Part shown: piece after piece, positions 1 through 61,383 of the stretch | How the letters are laid out: each line of letters opens with the position of its first letter | Numbering within the stretch: the first letter of the stretch is position 1 | Position numbers and translations under genes: made by a program | Assembly: GCF_050920415.1 (NCBI RefSeq) | Contig: NZ_CP169309.1 | DNA from: Escherichia coli | GTDB taxonomy: Bacteria; Pseudomonadota; Gammaproteobacteria; Enterobacterales; Enterobacteriaceae | DNA: 64,000 nucleotides | Direction: 5' to 3' (one strand) | The notes under the pieces: model-generated | Told to the model about the DNA's origin: nothing | The model's database searches: none | Seen by the model: only the letters and a program-made list of their open reading frames with translations

Positions 1-1877
1 GGTGGCAGAGCGTAGCCGGAACAGCCAAGGAATACCCCGGTGCTCGCTGTGCGAATACCCATTTTGCGACCACAGGTCGGGCAGTCGATGCTGGTCAGAA
101 CCATCTGGTTCGGGCGCATACCCCCCTCTTCGGGATCTTTTTCAGCTTTATCTAACTGCTGGGTGAAATCCGAGAAGAAGTGATCCAGTACAGCTTTCCA
201 CTCTGCTTCGTGATTTGCCACCTGGTCGAGGCTGTTTTCCATCTGTGCGGTGAAGTCGTAGTTCATTAACTCACGGAAATTCTCTTCCAGGCGATCGGTG
301 ACGATTTCGCCCATTTTTTCCGCATAGAAACGACGATTTTCTACTCGCACATAGCCACGATCCTGAATGGTCGAAATGATCGACGCGTAGGTAGACGGAC
401 GACCGATACCGCGTTTTTCCAGCTCTTTAACCAGCGATGCTTCACTGAAACGGGCTGGCGGCTTGGTAAAGTGCTGGGCTGGTGTCAGTTCAACGAGCGT
501 CAGAGCATCGCCTTTATCGACTGCCGGTAAGATACGATCTTCATCGCCTTTACGCAGCGCAGGCATCACTTTCGTCCAGCCATCAAAGCGCAAAATACGA
601 CCGCGTGCTTTCAGGCGGAAATCGCCCGCACCAACGGTCAGCGTCGTGGAGTCATATTTCGCTGGGGTCATCTGGCAGGCAACGAACTGACGCCAGATTA
701 ACTGGTACAGTTTCTGCGCATCTGCTTCCATATCCTTCAGCGATTCCGCCATCACATTGACGTCAGAAGGACGAATCGCTTCGTGCGCTTCCTGTGAGTT
801 TTCTTTGCTGGCGTACTGATTCGGACTTTCCGGCAGATATTTCTTACCAAAATTATCGCTGATATAACCGCGAACCATATTTACTGCGTCCTGACTCAGG
901 TTGGTGGAGTCGGTACGCATGTAAGTGATATAGCCTGCTTCATACAAACGCTGCGCCATCATCATGGTTTTTTTCACGCCAAAACCAAGACGGGTGCTGG
1001 CAGCTTGTTGCAGCGTAGAGGTAATAAAAGGAGCGCCAGGTTTACTGGTTGTCGGTTTGTCTTCACGTTCCAGCACGCTGTAGCGCGCTTTTTCCAGCAG
1101 ACTTACCGCAGCCTGAGTTTGTTCTTTGTTGACCGGGCGGAACGGTTTGTCGTTCTGATGAGTCACCTGCAACGCCAACGCATCACCAGATGGCGTGGTC
1201 GTGCTGGCATCGACTTCCCAGAACTCTTCCGGTACGAACGCTTTAATTTCACGCTCACGCTCGACCACCAGGCGGACCGCCACCGACTGCACACGACCTG
1301 CAGACAGACCACGAGCGATCTTTTTCCACAGCAGCGGCGAAACCATATATCCCACCACGCGGTCCATAAAGCGACGCGCCTGCTGGGCATTAACACGATC
1401 AATATTCAGCTCACCTGGTTTGTTAAATGCCTGGCGGATCGCGTTTTTAGTAATTTCGTTAAACACCACTCGGCTATAGCGCGCATCATCACCACCAATC
1501 ACTTCCCGCAGGTGCCATGCAATGGCTTCCCCTTCGCGGTCAAGGTCGGTTGCGAGATAGATGTGGTCTGCTTTTTCAGCCAGTTGTTTCAGTTCAGAGA
1601 CGACCTTCTCTTTACCAGGCAGCACTTCATAGTGCGCCTCCCAATTGTGCCACGGGTCAACCCCCATACGGTTGACGAGAGCGCCACGTTCATCCTTTTT
1701 AGGCTTTTTAGCCGTCTTGGTGGAGGTAGAGTCGGCACTCTTTTTGGCAGCTGAGCCACTGGTCGGCAAATCGCGGATGTGACCGACGCTGGATTTCACC
1801 ACGTAGTCACTACCCAGATACTTGTTGATCGTTTTGGCTTTTGCCGGGGACTCAACGATGACAAGAGCTTTACCCAT
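1..1877 (-). CDS. topA: DNA topoisomerase I, N-terminal ~625 codons; 3' end runs off the window
   Basis: Reverse complement of 1851-1877 reads ATG GGT AAA GCT CTT GTC ATC GTT GAG (MGKALVIVE), the TopA N-terminus; frame stays open to position 1; synteny with yciN and sohB. Confidence 0.88.
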
Positions 1878-42585: not shown

Positions 42586-42670
<85 letters not shown>

Positions 42671-42704
42671 TCTCAAGCATTACATCAAAATTTGAATTAT
42701 CCCT

Positions 42705-42789
<85 letters not shown>

Positions 42790-43501
42790 TCACTTTCAAA
42801 AGTTCCTGAAATCCCCAACAAATCCACAATTAAATATTCTGCCCATGCGGGGAAGGATGAGAAGCTTCGACTAAGGTTCGACTCGAGCGCCAGCGAGAGA
42901 GCGTTGCCGCAGGCAACGACCCGTAGGGCGAAGCGCGCAGCGCTGAGTAATCCTTCCCCCACCACCATCACTTTCAAAAACCCCTGTATTCTCCAACGAA
43001 TCCGTAACTGAATATTCTGCCCATGCGGGGAAGGATGAGAAGCTTCGACTAAGGTTCGACTCGAGCGCCAGCGAGAGAGCGTTGCCGCAGGCAACGACCC
43101 GTAGGGCGAAGCGCGCAGCGCTGAGTAATCCTTCCCCCACCACCATCACTTTCAAAAACCCCTGTATTCTCCAACGAATCCGTAACTGAATATTCTGCCC
43201 ATGCGGGGAAGGATGAGAAGCTTCGACTAAGGTTCGACTCGAGCGCCAGCGAGAGAGCGTTGCCGCAGGCAACGACCCGTAGGGCGAAGCGCGCAGCGCT
43301 GAGTAATCCTTCCCCCACCACCATCACTTTCAAAAACCCCTGTATTCTCCAACGAATCCGTAACTGAATATTCTGCCCATGCGGGGAAGGATGAGAAGCT
43401 TTGACTAAGGTTCGACTCGAGCGCCAGCGAGAGAGCATTGCCGCAGGCAACGACCCGTAGGGCGAAGCGCGCAGCGCTGAGTAATCCTTCCCCCACCACC
43501 A
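42790..43501 (+). repeat. Four tandem 178-bp direct repeats (rtT region), each ending in the last ~19 nt of tRNA-Tyr
   Basis: Unit boundaries 42790-42967, 42968-43145, 43146-43323, 43324-43501; copies 2-4 near-identical, copy 1 diverged at its 5' end; each ends ccttcccccaccacca. Confidence 0.9.
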
Positions 43502-57954: not shown

Positions 57955-58223
57955 CGTTGACTCCTTTTACAAAGTTGAACATTAAGTGTGGTCAACAATA
58001 TCCACTCTTGCCAAAACATAAGAATTTTCATGTCAGACTCTTCTTAAGAAACGCTAAAACAAACATTGTCTAAACGCATTGCTTATTTTTATGGCCCGAT
58101 GAGTAAAAAATCGACAGCGGGGTAAAAATTCGTAAAATGTTACCGATATCCAGACACTTTCTGTTATTTTTCCTACCTATTTTTTACATTTTCGATAAAT
58201 TCATCTGCAAAGGGATAACCATA

Positions 58224-59324
58224 ATGTCAAATGCTCAAGAGGCGGTAAAAACCCGCCACAAGGAGACTTCGCTTATTTTCCCGGTTCTGGCGCTGGTAGT
58301 GCTGTTCCTGTGGGGAAGCAGCCAGACACTACCAGTGGTCATTGCCATCAACCTTCTTGCTCTTATTGGTATTTTAAGTAGCGCCTTTAGTGTTGTCCGT
58401 CATGCGGACGTATTAGCCCATCGCCTGGGAGAACCTTACGGTTCGCTTATTCTTAGCCTTTCAGTGGTTATTCTTGAAGTCAGTTTGATTTCAGCTTTAA
58501 TGGCAACCGGCGACGCCGCGCCAACGCTAATGCGTGATACGCTCTATTCAATCATTATGATTGTTACCGGTGGGCTGGTTGGCTTTTCATTATTGTTGGG
58601 CGGACGCAAGTTTGCCACCCAATATATGAATCTGTTTGGTATCAAGCAGTATTTAATTGCGCTGTTCCCCCTGGCGATAATCGTACTGGTATTTCCAATG
58701 GCTCTGCCTGTGGCGAATTTTTCAACCGGTCAGGCGTTACTGGTAGCATTAATTTCTGCGGCAATGTATGGCGTATTTTTGCTGATCCAGACCAAAACGC
58801 ATCAAAGTTTATTTGTCTACGAGCACGAAGATGACAGTGATGATGACGACCCGCACCACGGTAAACCGTCTGCCCATAGCAGCCTGTGGCATGCTATCTG
58901 GTTGATTGTCCATCTGATTGCCGTTATTGCAGTCACCAAAATGAACGCCAGCCCGCTGGAGACATTGCTCGACAGCATGAATGCCCCTGTCGCCTTTACT
59001 GGCTTCCTGGTGGCTCTGTTGATTCTGTCGCCGGAAGGTTTAGGTGCGTTAAAAGCAGTGTTGAACAACCAGGTCCAGCGCGCGATGAATCTGTTCTTTG
59101 GTTCAGTGTTAGCAACCATTTCGCTTACCGTACCTGTCGTCACGCTAATTGCCTTTATGACGGGTAACGAATTGCAGTTTGCACTTGGTGCGCCTGAAAT
59201 GGTGGTGATGGTGGCCTCTTTAGTGCTGTGCCATATCTCCTTCTCCACCGGACGTACTAACGTGCTCAATGGCGCAGCGCATCTGGCACTGTTTGCCGCC
59301 TATTTGATGACGATATTTGCCTGA
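58224..59324 (+). CDS. chaA: Ca2+/H+ and Na+/H+ antiporter ChaA (366 aa)
   Basis: Start MSNAQEAVKT with AGGGA Shine-Dalgarno; polytopic membrane protein with acidic DDSDDDD loop. Confidence 0.9.
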   Translation: MSNAQEAVKTRHKETSLIFPVLALVVLFLWGSSQTLPVVIAINLLALIGILSSAFSVVRHADVLAHRLGEPYGSLILSLSVVILEVSLISALMATGDAAPTLMRDTLYSIIMIVTGGLVGFSLLLGGRKFATQYMNLFGIKQYLIALFPLAIIVLVFPMALPVANFSTGQALLVALISAAMYGVFLLIQTKTHQSLFVYEHEDDSDDDDPHHGKPSAHSSLWHAIWLIVHLIAVIAVTKMNASPLETLLDSMNAPVAFTGFLVALLILSPEGLGALKAVLNNQVQRAMNLFFGSVLATISLTVPVVTLIAFMTGNELQFALGAPEMVVMVASLVLCHISFSTGRTNVLNGAAHLALFAAYLMTIFA

Positions 59325-59729
59325 CAGTTATATCTCCTCCGATGACAGAAATCGGGGGAGATAATATAAATTCCTGCTTATTGTATTTCTTCATACTACC
59401 TGAACAGGTCGTTAATCAGAATTGCGAGCCTGTACCACAACCTGCACGAAACCACTGCAACAGCTGTTGAAAAGCCGGAATGTACTCTTTATTGCAAACA
59501 TTTCAGGGATGAAGTGAAGATGAATTGAGACGTAATATCCACACCAAGCCGGCGTTATCCGGTGAGGCGCAATGTTGCGGGGGCTTTATCCCTGGTGGCA
59601 TTGGTTGCTGGAAAGAGAAAACCCCCGCACGTTGAGAGGTAAAACCTGACAACAGAACGGGGGCTAATCTTGAACCATCAACAATTCAAGAATAGCCGCA
59701 AAATGTTGTCATTACAACAAGGCGGCTAT

Positions 59730-59837
59730 ATGACGCTCGCGCAGTTTGCCATGATTTTCTGGCACGACCTAGCGGCACCGATCCTGGCGGGGATTATTAC
59801 CGCAGTGATTGTCAGCTGGTGGCGTAACCGGAAGTAA
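59730..59837 (+). CDS. ldrA: Type I toxin Ldr, 35 aa (MTLAQFAMIFWHDLAAPILAGIITAVIVSWWRNRK)
   Basis: 35-codon ORF read directly; matches the LdrA sequence; below the ORF-track size cutoff. Confidence 0.85.
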   Translation: MTLAQFAMIFWHDLAAPILAGIITAVIVSWWRNRK

Positions 59838-60264
59838 GGTGAAAACGGGCGTCAGGCTGCCGTGATGGCAATATGCGCCCGAAACCGGCCGCAGGGGTAA
59901 CAGCCTGCGGCCCTTTTTGTCTTTATCTCTTCTGCAAGTAAATATTGGCAACCCGAGCTGGAAGCATCATCCAGAGCACTCATGAAACGACTGTAACAGC
60001 TGTTGAAAAACCGGAATGCACTCTTCATTGCAAACATTTCAGGGATGAAGTGAAGATGAATTGAGACGTAGTATCCACACCAAGCCGGAGTTATCCGGTG
60101 AGGCGCAATGTTGCGGGGGCTCTATCCCTGGTGGCATTGGTTGCTGGAAAGAGAAAACCCCCGCACGTTGAGAGGTACAACCTGACAACAGAACGGGGGC
60201 TAATCTTGAAACCAGACACTTCAAGAATAGCCGCAAAATGTTGTCATTACAACAAGGCGGCTAT

Positions 60265-60372
60265 ATGACGCTCGCGCAGTTTGCCATGACTTTCTGGCAC
60301 GACCTGGCAGCACCGATCCTGGCGGGAATTATTACCGCAGCGATTGTCAGCTGGTGGCGTAACCGGAAGTAA
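60265..60372 (+). CDS. ldrB: Type I toxin Ldr, second copy, 35 aa (MTLAQFAMTFWHDLAAPILAGIITAAIVSWWRNRK)
   Basis: Same architecture 535 bp downstream; two amino-acid differences from copy 1; paralogue assignment tentative. Confidence 0.8.
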   Translation: MTLAQFAMTFWHDLAAPILAGIITAAIVSWWRNRK

Positions 60373-60519
60373 GGTGAAAACGGGCGTCAGGCTGCCGTGA
60401 TGGCAATATGCGCCCGAAACCGGCCGCAGGGGTAACAGCCTGCGGCCTTTTTTGTATCCGGCCCCATGAAAAAAGCCTTAACGCAGAACGCTAAGGCTTT
60501 AGTTTTCAGGCAAAAAAGA

Positions 60520-61383
<864 letters not shown>

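Follow-up and report, generated by a model that had tools for sequence, protein, structure and literature searches.

We can conclude with high confidence that the region between chaA and kdsA in the window, i.e. the whole 64,000-nucleotide stretch of Escherichia coli DNA that was analysed, consists of two tandem and intact LDR modules of the chromosomal ldr/rdl type I toxin-antitoxin system. Chance cannot be the source of the repeats, open reading frames, terminators and Rdl matches found here, and the locus is already known and already annotated in public genomes. Indeed ldr/rdl has counted among the textbook type I toxin-antitoxin systems from 2002 onwards, the year of its reported description as such by Kawano. 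The array and its flanks are arranged as follows:

58137-59324, plus strand: chaA, one flank of the ldr/rdl array
59377-59920, plus strand: LDR repeat unit 1, adjoining chaA, direct-repeat families D1 and D2
59913-60455, plus strand: LDR repeat unit 2, adjoining kdsA, direct-repeat families D1 and D2
60520-61374, minus strand: kdsA, the other flank

The units lie head to tail in the chaA-kdsA intergenic region, with flanks as in K-12 and at a spacing of 535-536 bp. Positions 59377-59674 are 86% identical to 59913-60210 at a spacing of 536 bp, positions 59681-59920 are 97% identical to 60216-60455 at a spacing of 535 bp, and between their transcribed parts the units share 96.3% identity. These spacings agree with an earlier note on this DNA, which had described two direct repeats of roughly 535 bp and was borne out in each of its checkable details; the range given there, 59457-60460, does cover the well-conserved part, but weaker similarity begins about 80 bp earlier, at 59377. 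The K-12 pairs ldrA-rdlA, ldrB-rdlB and ldrC-rdlC, also designated LDR-A, -B and -C, occupy the same site between the same flanks, in the same orientation and with a ~535-bp unit, and the alignment to them that the note had proposed gives 96-98% identity over the transcribed unit, with the position of Rdl, the sequence upstream of rdl, the Shine-Dalgarno sequence and the terminator all as here. The transcribed part of unit 1 shares 97.9% identity with the ldrA unit of K-12 and 98.2% with that of E. coli E69, and that of unit 2 is 98.4% identical to both the ldrA and the ldrB units of K-12. The DNA is furthermore 100% identical to a RefSeq locus of E. coli MFDS1022581, in which two Ldr coding sequences are annotated.

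K-12 has three units between chaA and kdsA (ldrA/B/C with rdlA/B/C), whereas two are found here, in agreement with the earlier note, which had suggested that copy number varies. This variation is real: arrays of one, two and three units were verified in E. coli, and among 5,440 E. coli records sampled at even spacing, ~24% have one unit, 31% two and 44% at least three. With ~30% of complete E. coli genomes carrying two units, two copies are therefore common and not unusual. It should also be mentioned that the pattern used on contigs (the 5' part of Rdl plus the stem) was too strict, finding 8 loci and missing ldrD-type and Salmonella copies, and that more distant copies were obtained via contigs encoding relatives and by a 'distant' search of a plasmid collection. 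The notion that ldr is mobile, which the plasmid matches might have raised, was rejected, since all of the 22 records are typed as non-mobilizable and several are Mb-sized and apparently chromosomal.

Each unit carries a 35-codon open reading frame for an Ldr peptide:

59730-59837, plus strand: ldr toxin gene of unit 1, 35 aa plus stop, I9/V26 allele, MTLAQFAMIFWHDLAAPILAGIITAVIVSWWRNRK
60265-60372, plus strand: ldr toxin gene of unit 2, 35 aa plus stop, T9/A26 allele, MTLAQFAMTFWHDLAAPILAGIITAAIVSWWRNRK

The Pfam scan, which covered unit 1 only, matched its peptide to PF13940 Ldr_toxin over residues 1-35 of 35 (E = 2.9e-24, 85.3 bits), and the peptide of unit 2, outside that scan, matches LdrD of PDB entry 5LBJ (E = 1e-10). 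In the identical RefSeq locus the two are WP_000170956.1 (unit 1) and WP_000170965.1 (unit 2), both annotated as Ldr family toxins, and the former is found also in a second strain with a single-unit array. The assignment to Ldr made in the earlier note is thus upheld, and so is its count of two differing residues, the peptides being distinguished by exactly I9T and V26A. Unit 1 has V26 where K-12 LdrA and LdrC have A26, and unit 2 joins T9, as in LdrB, with S29, as in LdrA and LdrC, both alleles being already present in RefSeq. Even when read from the first possible start the frames extend to 55 aa (TTG) and 44 aa (ATG), so that both fall below the 60-aa threshold by which, according to the note, they had been hidden. 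Searching for homologues of the 44-aa extended frame returned almost exclusively E. coli and Shigella proteins, some of them annotated as 44- or 55-aa versions, and NCBIfam and PADLOC gave no match for the 35-aa peptides or for the leader peptide, which is uninformative at such short lengths. Both peptides contain a PXXXG motif (P17-I-L-A-G21) and a W30-W31 pair followed by R-N-R-K, as in the signature of the Fst/Ldr family, which comprises a transmembrane helix with PXXXG, a conserved Trp and a charged C-terminus (PMC2887945, PMC7472228).

Functional statements on both units are transferred from K-12 ldrA and ldrD, the activities of the two peptides being presumed by analogy. Ldr is described in the literature as a single-helix inner-membrane peptide, the over-production of which collapses ATP and membrane function and stops growth. 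LdrD is toxic and is counteracted by RdlD (PMC4147584), and LdrA, which is membrane-located and pore-forming, causes a drop in ATP within 2 min (PMC8309996, PMC12643268). That over-expression arrests growth or kills, and that the peptide resides in the inner membrane, is documented for K-12 LdrA and LdrD only (PMC8309996, PMC12643268), and a deletion phenotype has been reported for none of the chromosomal Fst/Ldr systems (PMC7472228).

The ldr transcripts would comprise the following elements:

59533-59538, plus strand: putative ldr -10 box TAATAT of unit 1, start of transcription probably near 59545
60069-60074, plus strand: putative ldr -10 box TAGTAT of unit 2, start of transcription probably near 60081
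59545-59920, plus strand: predicted ldr mRNA of unit 1, ~376 nt including a ~185-nt leader, delimited by the conservation boundary and the terminator
60081-60455, plus strand: predicted ldr mRNA of unit 2, about 375 nt
59720-59725, plus strand: Shine-Dalgarno sequence AGGCGG of ldr in unit 1
59887-59920, plus strand: intrinsic terminator of unit 1, hairpin at 59887-59912
60422-60455, plus strand: intrinsic terminator of unit 2, hairpin at 60422-60447

A strict scan for consensus sigma-70 promoters found no site for ldr or rdl, and we therefore infer both promoters from conservation and from the K-12 annotations. For ldr the promoter and the start of transcription are weakly placed and follow from conservation only, the box TA[AG]TAT/TAGAAT being conserved in nearly all aligned copies and the homology of ldrD-type to ldrABC-type units beginning at the ldr -10 box. 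The Shine-Dalgarno core GGCGG is invariant upstream of the ATG in 20/20 copies, with the Shine-Dalgarno sequence of unit 2 located at 60255, and the strong terminator that the earlier note had seen behind each frame was recovered in both units as a stem of nine pairs, eight of them G-C, followed by a T-run.

The antisense RNA genes and their putative promoters are located on the opposite strand:

59616-59682, minus strand: rdl antisense RNA gene of unit 1, Rfam RF01813 rdlD over 59616-59681, 83.6 bits, E = 2.4e-17
60152-60217, minus strand: rdl antisense RNA gene of unit 2, Rfam RF01813 rdlD, 90.1 bits, E = 4.8e-19
59689-59717, minus strand: putative rdl promoter of unit 1, -10 TATTCT at 59689-59694, -35 TTGTAA at 59712-59717, 17-nt spacer
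60224-60252, minus strand: putative rdl promoter of unit 2, -10 at 60224-60229, -35 at 60247-60252

An Rdl RNA opposite each leader had been anticipated from general knowledge and its ends left unplaced; the covariance search of the minus strand suggested at the time gives one full-length match per leader, well above the RF01813 gathering score of 50 and covering model positions 1-66 of 66 in both cases, and the ends can now be placed. The 5' end in unit 1 was put at G 59682 by analogy with K-12 rdlA, 7 nt after TATTCT. The Rdl stem-loops have predicted energies of -27.3 kcal/mol (z = -4.5) in unit 1 and -26.7 kcal/mol (z = -4.6) in unit 2, and rdl has a terminator-like hairpin with a U-run. 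Over the ~40 nt upstream of rdl there is near identity to the annotated K-12 rdlA/B/C/D, and the putative promoter, with 6 nt from TATTCT to the G start, matches the consensus at 8/12 positions only, which is why it lies below the threshold of the scan. Judged from these features, rdl appears to have its own promoter, weak by consensus, as well as its own intrinsic terminator. Rdl of unit 2 differs from the 66-nt K-12 rdlB by a single loop base (G for U at position 40), and that of unit 1 begins with the 1-nt longer 'CCATCAAC' variant, which is also found in E. coli E69. Since the two RNAs are the same except for the first ~7 nt and a single base in the loop, cross-repression between the units by either Rdl would be likely. 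Both are 66-67 nt long and lie opposite the ldr leader, wholly inside the mRNA, with 5' ends (59682, 60217) 48-49 nt upstream of the ldr start codons (59730, 60265), leaving the Shine-Dalgarno sequence and the start codon uncovered. The literature on an unstable ~60-nt Rdl that counteracts Ldr toxicity covers rdlD only (PMC4147584, PMC7373196), and a peak of RNase III-derived dsRNA has been mapped to the rdlD/ldrD overlap (PMC7373196).

The open reading frames, Shine-Dalgarno sequences, terminators and Rdl stem-loops are intact in both units, and it is very improbable that either is a decaying relic lacking active toxin or antitoxin. Chromosomal type I loci do sometimes degenerate (PMC2887945), a relative in Pseudocitrobacter vendiensis has a premature stop in ldr, and the V26 allele of unit 1 is known from sequence alone, but here both frames are full length, as is the Pfam match of unit 1, start codons and rdl upstream regions are likewise preserved and nearly identical to those of K-12, and both peptides are established RefSeq entries for Ldr toxins, one of them shared with a second strain. 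Still further from belief is the notion that the similarity reflects a non-coding intergenic repeat in which the 35-codon frames are accidental. LDRs were first catalogued simply as intergenic repeats (Rudd 1999, as cited in PMC4147584), and NCBIfam returned no family for the 35-aa peptides; the Pfam E-value is however hard to reconcile with accident, an NMR structure exists for the homologue LdrD (5LBJ), and the ldr frame stays open across genera and in most cases has exactly 35 codons, although DNA identity falls to about 77%, with 43% of the codon differences between copies being synonymous. The toxicity of LdrA and LdrD has moreover been shown experimentally (PMC8309996), and the accidental reading is thereby already refuted.

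As to mechanism, each unit would give rise to a highly structured plus-strand mRNA of ~375 nt, comprising a ~185-nt leader, the 35-codon ldr frame and the hairpin terminator, and to a 66-67-nt Rdl RNA from the minus strand inside the leader. By analogy with the K-12 systems, Rdl would pair with the leader and thereby prevent Ldr synthesis, and the resulting duplex would be a substrate of RNase III. The full-length mRNA may additionally be self-locked, because the ribosome-binding site and AUG are predicted to pair with a conserved 3'UTR element:

59847-59879, plus strand: 3'UTR element of unit 1, with complementarity to 59705-59739 (SD/AUG region) and 59566-59571 (GGCGCA in the leader)
60382-60414, plus strand: 3'UTR element of unit 2, with complementarity to 60240-60274 (SD/AUG region) and 60102-60107 (GGCGCA in the leader)

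These elements were delimited from an RNAalifold consensus and pair counts. The predicted mRNA folds reach -165.2 kcal/mol (z = -6.3) in unit 1 and -172 kcal/mol (z = -7.1) in unit 2, and a long-range fold-back hiding the translation start is predicted in both. Over 20 copies from Escherichia, Citrobacter, Pseudocitrobacter, Salmonella, Klebsiella and Lelliottia, 97.4% of the cells of the 29 long-range pairs are kept as against 34-52% in slid registers, the structure having been derived from the same sequences on which pair conservation was counted. Just one of the 29 pairs is changed on both sides, the rest of the support being conserved complementarity and wobble exchanges. That the ldr ribosome-binding site and start codon are complementary to the 3'UTR in 20 copies from several genera suggests a hok-like locked mRNA, and the fold-back may already have been drawn in Kawano 2002 or Kawano 2012.

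How Rdl acts is described as 'currently unknown' (PMC8309996). It leaves the ldr ribosome-binding site uncovered, and most likely remodels or cleaves the leader or blocks the passage of ribosomes along it. The leaders contain the following open reading frames:

59572-59649, plus strand: ATG leader ORF of unit 1, 25 codons, MLRGLYPWWHWLLERENPRTLRGKT, GAGG just before
60108-60185, plus strand: ATG leader ORF of unit 2, 25 codons, MLRGLYPWWHWLLERENPRTLRGTT
60098-60268, plus strand: 56-codon leader ORF of unit 2 with a GTG start, its stop and the ldr ATG overlapping in ATATGA

According to PMC4147584, PMC8167048 and PMC8594479, Gerdes and Wagner 2007 put forward that Rdl acts like Sok on hok: a leader ORF, 'ldrX', would overlap the start region of ldr, the translation of ldr would depend on coupling to it, and Rdl would block the translation of 'ldrX'. 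The GTG ORF of unit 2 has the overlap that such coupling calls for, and is found also in K-12 ldrA, but in unit 1 (59562-59642), K-12 ldrB and E69 a TAA follows the 26th codon of this frame, and in C. sedlakii, P. vendiensis, E1V33_D and two metagenome copies the frame is cut as early as the 8th; in K-12 ldrC it is frameshifted, and in ldrD-type copies it runs in frame into ldr. The ATG ORF with its GAGG ribosome-binding site is more widespread, occurring in 16/17 copies and, with three later ones, in 19/20, and it starts 44 nt before the Rdl target; it nevertheless always ends 72-95 nt short of the ldr ATG, and in C. sedlakii ACG replaces its ATG. The leader ORFs furthermore differ between copies and relatives, and a conserved 25-codon peptide is rejected by 31 synonymous versus 235 non-synonymous codon differences, the synonymous fraction (31/266) being the lowest of the three frames (95/275 and 53/250 in the other two), so that the codon comparison shows no selection on the peptide. 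Faint matches of the ldr leaders to RF01794 ('sok antitoxin (CssrC)') reach 27-28 bits against a threshold of 59 and point in the direction of coupling, yet as evidence of family membership these and the 'rnk_leader' matches were rejected, being far below the gathering scores. Among the leader ORFs examined there is thus no conserved overlapping ORF of the hok/sok type with its start region under the antisense RNA, and we regard 'ldrX' coupling as rather unlikely, where the candidates judged are the GTG and ATG ORFs and the originally defined ldrX may be another one. The reading we tentatively prefer, as possible though short of probable, is that a hok/AapA1-like self-lock operates together with a leader that is constrained as RNA and not for coding: the leader would hold a short ORF that can be translated but on whose peptide selection does not act, and Rdl, which can pair with one of the two strands in each of three conserved leader helices, would remodel or cleave these instead of acting through an 'ldrX' coupling ORF.

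The resemblance to hok/mok/sok of plasmid R1 and its chromosomal copies extends to a small membrane toxin, a long, structured and stable mRNA with leader ORFs, a short antisense RNA directed against the leader instead of the toxin ribosome-binding site, a predicted 5'/3' fold-back over the translation start and a duplex cleaved by RNase III (PMC4147584, PMC7373196). The toxin families are however unrelated, ldr lacks a counterpart of mok in the form of a consistently conserved, overlapping leader ORF, 3'-end processing is a feature of the hok side, and the RF01794 match is sub-threshold. Fst/RNAII (par of pAD1) and other Gram-positive Fst/Ldr toxins belong to the same toxin superfamily (PMC2887945, PMC7472228), but there it is the 3' end of the toxin gene that encodes the antitoxin RNA, pairing takes place via direct repeats, and regulation is different. 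The experimentally characterised member, E. coli ldrD-rdlD (LDR-D), has the same architecture and the same Pfam and Rfam families, an almost identical leader core CCGGTGAGGCGCAATGTTGCGGGGGCTTTATCCCTGGTGGCATTGGTTGCTGG...CCCCCGCACGTTG and a transcript about 81% identical, but it is a single copy at bcsG-yhjV with a clearly diverged peptide; its Rdl loop differs as well, and one extra nucleotide before the Shine-Dalgarno sequence changes the leader reading frames. A separate observation concerns a Lelliottia plasmid (L021), where the same chassis of leader, Rdl and 3'UTR carries an unrelated 30-codon hydrophobic ORF, which hints that the regulatory RNA module may be re-usable with different toxins.

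As a discovery the locus matters little, being annotated in RefSeq genomes with identical sequence. It does illustrate that a 60-aa ORF cutoff used without RNA models misses four genes here, two ldr and two rdl, and that copy number at chaA-kdsA is a common polymorphism of one, two, or three or more units. The comparative data furthermore narrow the question of mechanism, in that they favour a conserved fold-back over the start site and speak against any conserved ORF for coupling, and the self-locked reading, if true, would provide a concrete and testable mechanism for the step that reviews call unknown.

Between chaA and kdsA the window holds two tandem ldr/rdl units with the following features.

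ends at 59324, + strand: chaA, 395-aa ORF, one flank of the locus
59572-59649 and 60108-60185, + strand: ATG leader ORF with a GAGG ribosome-binding site
59616-59681, - strand: rdl of unit 1 (beside chaA), whole-model match to the Rfam rdlD model RF01813, 83.6 bits
59730-59837, + strand: ldr ORF of unit 1, 35 codons, MTLAQFAMIFWHDLAAPILAGIITAVIVSWWRNRK
59887-59912: terminator hairpin of unit 1, 9-bp stem with 8 G-C pairs, then a T-run
60098-60268, + strand: GTG leader ORF of unit 2 (beside kdsA), 56 codons, ending ATATGA over the ldr ATG
60152-60217, - strand: rdl of unit 2, whole-model match to RF01813, 90.1 bits
60265-60372, + strand: ldr ORF of unit 2, 35 codons, MTLAQFAMTFWHDLAAPILAGIITAAIVSWWRNRK
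60422-60447: terminator hairpin of unit 2, 9-bp stem with 8 G-C pairs, then a T-run
60520-61374, - strand: kdsA, 284-aa ORF, the other flank

The tandem ~535-bp direct repeats of the earlier note were recovered by a direct-repeat search as two families, 59377-59674 versus 59913-60210 (86% identity, spacing 536 bp) and 59681-59920 versus 60216-60455 (97% identity, spacing 535 bp), and its account of one 35-codon ORF and a strong hairpin terminator per repeat holds, as do the two residue differences between the toxin copies, I9T and V26A. That the ORFs encode Ldr toxins is confirmed by Pfam PF13940 (Ldr_toxin), which covers the unit 1 peptide end to end (E = 2.9e-24), and by the match of the unit 2 peptide to the NMR-solved LdrD (PDB 5LBJ, E = 1e-10). 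Extended in-frame starts would give versions of 55 aa (TTG, unit 1 only, 59670-59837, +) and 44 aa (ATG, 60238-60372, +), and 'Ldr' entries of both lengths are numerous in public databases (e.g. the protein entries P0001 and P0002); these are likely mis-annotated starts, since a conserved SD precedes the 35-codon start.

The antisense Rdl expected opposite each leader was likewise found by a minus-strand covariance-model search, both scores exceeding the RF01813 gathering score of 50, and the 64-kb window holds only these two matches to the model, one per unit. The predicted long stem-loop has the expected shape, with -27.3 kcal/mol in unit 1 and -26.7 kcal/mol in unit 2 (z about -4.5). The unit 2 Rdl equals K-12 rdlB in length and differs from it by one loop base, and by analogy with K-12 rdlA the unit 1 Rdl probably begins one base further upstream, at 59682. 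Furthermore, the ~40 nt upstream of both rdl genes are near-identical to the stretches before annotated K-12 rdlA-D, and comprise TTGTAA, a 17-nt spacer, TATTCT and 6 nt before a G start. A promoter scan found no consensus promoter at the ldr units. Every feature of Ldr, Rdl and an LDR array that can be tested from sequence was found at this locus. Elsewhere in the window, two tRNA genes (42586-42667, 42705-42786) and four tandem RtT RNA repeats (42836-43501, 124-133 bits) make up 42586-43501 (+), a locus whose repeat copy number may differ between strains, and there is an ordinary tryptophan operon leader (RF00513, 9335-9428, +, 93 bits).

In K-12 MG1655 the same chaA-kdsA site is occupied by ldrA/rdlA, ldrB/rdlB and ldrC/rdlC, and the suggested kinship with these is borne out by alignment, the transcribed units being 96-98% identical to the K-12 units at this site and about 81% identical to ldrD. 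E. coli MFDS1022581 has a locus 100% identical to that of the window, in which two CDS bear the annotation Ldr family toxin. The locus is already known and correctly annotated elsewhere; only what the comparison of copies shows about the regulatory RNA is mildly new here, and may itself have been published.

The earlier note was also right that copy number varies and that two units stand here against three in K-12. In a sample of 60 rows, spaced evenly down the ranked list of the 5,440 E. coli records that matched, 17 matched at full length from chaA to kdsA (two units), 2 stopped just short of kdsA (two units plus IS200C; verified for match H62, assumed for H63), 14 had one unit (verified for H48), 26 stopped before kdsA (three or more units, the K-12 type; H64 verified as three) and 1 was a contig fragment uninformative on copy number. 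Array sizes are thus roughly 24% one unit, 31% two and 44% three or more, and the two-unit state is an ordinary form of a common polymorphism. An IS200C transposase gene has inserted at the locus in some E. coli strains: in strain 405 (locus L018, 3879-4337) it separates the last ldr unit from kdsA and adjoins the ldr terminator hairpin, and match H34 also carries one. Mobility of ldr was considered from PLSDB matches and rejected: all 22 records with ldr units (H91-H112) have the type non-mobilizable, several reach 1-5 Mb in size or have chromosomal genes (dppF, tsx and yajD among them) as neighbours, and the records appear to be chromosomal sequence deposited as plasmids. In a 503-nt contig of 'Bacillus sp. 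EB106-08-02-XG196' (L010, coverage 0.66) the leader and Rdl are of the Escherichia ldrD type, and the contig is almost certainly contamination of that assembly.

Each LDR unit encodes a 35-aa peptide that is toxic, together with the ~60-nt antisense RNA Rdl; over-production of LdrD is lethal and counteracted by RdlD (PMC4147584). LdrA is a membrane peptide, described as pore-forming; it causes growth arrest and a fall in ATP within 2 min, and over-expression of YajC neutralises it (PMC8309996, PMC12643268). The rdlD/ldrD overlap gives an RNase III-dependent ~21-nt dsRNA peak (PMC7373196). The way in which Rdl prevents Ldr synthesis has been called 'currently unknown' (PMC8309996).

We compared 20 ldr copies, including the window's two, K-12 ldrA-D and those of E. 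coli E69, E. whittamii, Escherichia sp. E1V33, Citrobacter sedlakii, Pseudocitrobacter vendiensis, two metagenome contigs, Salmonella Bredeney, Klebsiella aerogenes and a Lelliottia plasmid; conservation, transcript extent and leader ORFs were assessed on a 17-copy set and the fold-back count on all 20. An rdlD match lies at the same relative place in every scanned non-Escherichia copy and both metagenome copies. Across genera the toxin ORF has changed more than the leader (59545-59730, 60081-60265): in seven diverse copies the mean pairwise identity is 77% for the ORF and 83-87% for leader segments, and the ~95 nt from CCGGTGAGGCGCAATG to CCCCCGCACGTTG are near-invariant. Homology between ldrD-type and ldrABC-type copies begins at a conserved TA(A/G)TAT/TAGAAT box (59533 and 60069), which would imply transcripts of about 375 nt. 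In P. vendiensis (L011, 1256-1633) a premature TAG in the ldr ORF (MTLVQFSVMFWHDLAAPILAGIITAAIVGW*) removes the charged C-terminus and Rdl still scores 85 bits, so that the toxin is probably inactivated and the antitoxin retained. On the plasmid of Lelliottia sp. JS-SCA-14 (NZ_CP141607.1; L021, 398-755) an ldr-type leader, 3'UTR and terminator surround an unannotated 30-codon ORF (MTFKEALLLAVVTSVVGPVLVALIRHFFKF) with no detectable similarity to Ldr, and an rdlD match of 50.5 bits, at the gathering threshold, lies at 470-534 (minus strand); here another toxin-like peptide appears to be encoded within the same RNA chassis.

The main rival account of Rdl control is a hok/mok-like coupling of ldr to a leader ORF, 'ldrX', which has been proposed and is unconfirmed (PMC4147584, PMC8167048, PMC8594479). 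The locus is similar to hok/sok in layout, but lacks the conserved overlapping leader ORF of that system. The GTG ORF overlaps ldr in unit 2, and its frame continues in phase into ldr in ldrD-type copies; in unit 1, K-12 ldrB and E69 a stop codon closes it after 26 codons, in five relatives after 8, and K-12 ldrC has a frameshift in it. The ATG leader ORF (20-28 codons) is present in 19/20 copies, C. sedlakii having ACG in place of the ATG, and always ends 72-95 nt before ldr. Its codon differences are 31 synonymous versus 235 non-synonymous, the lowest synonymous share among the three frames (for the ldr ORF the counts are 854 versus 1115), and its Trp-to-Arg changes are U-to-C changes that convert G-U to G-C pairs. 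On these grounds we infer that the leader evolves as RNA, and the ATG ORF may be translated with its peptide sequence irrelevant. It should also be mentioned that sub-threshold matches to RF01794, 'sok antitoxin (CssrC)', lie on the ldr-sense strand and stop precisely at the ldr AUG (59579-59732 and 60115-60267, +; E = 0.002-0.003, 27-28 bits where the gathering score is 59), and that T1TAdb classes one Ldr locus as Hok/Sok from RNA features, together a faint hint of a leader architecture shared with Hok/Sok.

The predicted ldr mRNA folds are unusually stable (unit 2, -172 kcal/mol, z = -7.1; unit 1, -165 kcal/mol, z = -6.3). In single-sequence and consensus folds the 3'UTR element GGGCGUCAGGCUGCCGUGAUGGCAAU is predicted to pair with GUUGUCAUUAC, the SD GGCGGCU and the AUG-containing UGACGCUC, and the 3'UTR UGCGCC with the leader GGCGCA. 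In the 20-copy comparison, pairing is possible in 97.4% of the cells for the 29 long-range pairs versus 34-52% in slid registers, and it is kept in the Lelliottia copy despite its unrelated ORF; since just one of the 29 pairs changes on both sides, and 14 on a single side, a conserved fold-back is suggested, not proven. In the predicted fold the sites complementary to Rdl are the 3' strand of the GCGGGGG/CCCCCGC helix, one whole hairpin and the 5' strand of the next hairpin. The best reading is that the ldr mRNA would be self-locked, and that Rdl pairing would remodel the leader and trigger its cleavage by RNase III.
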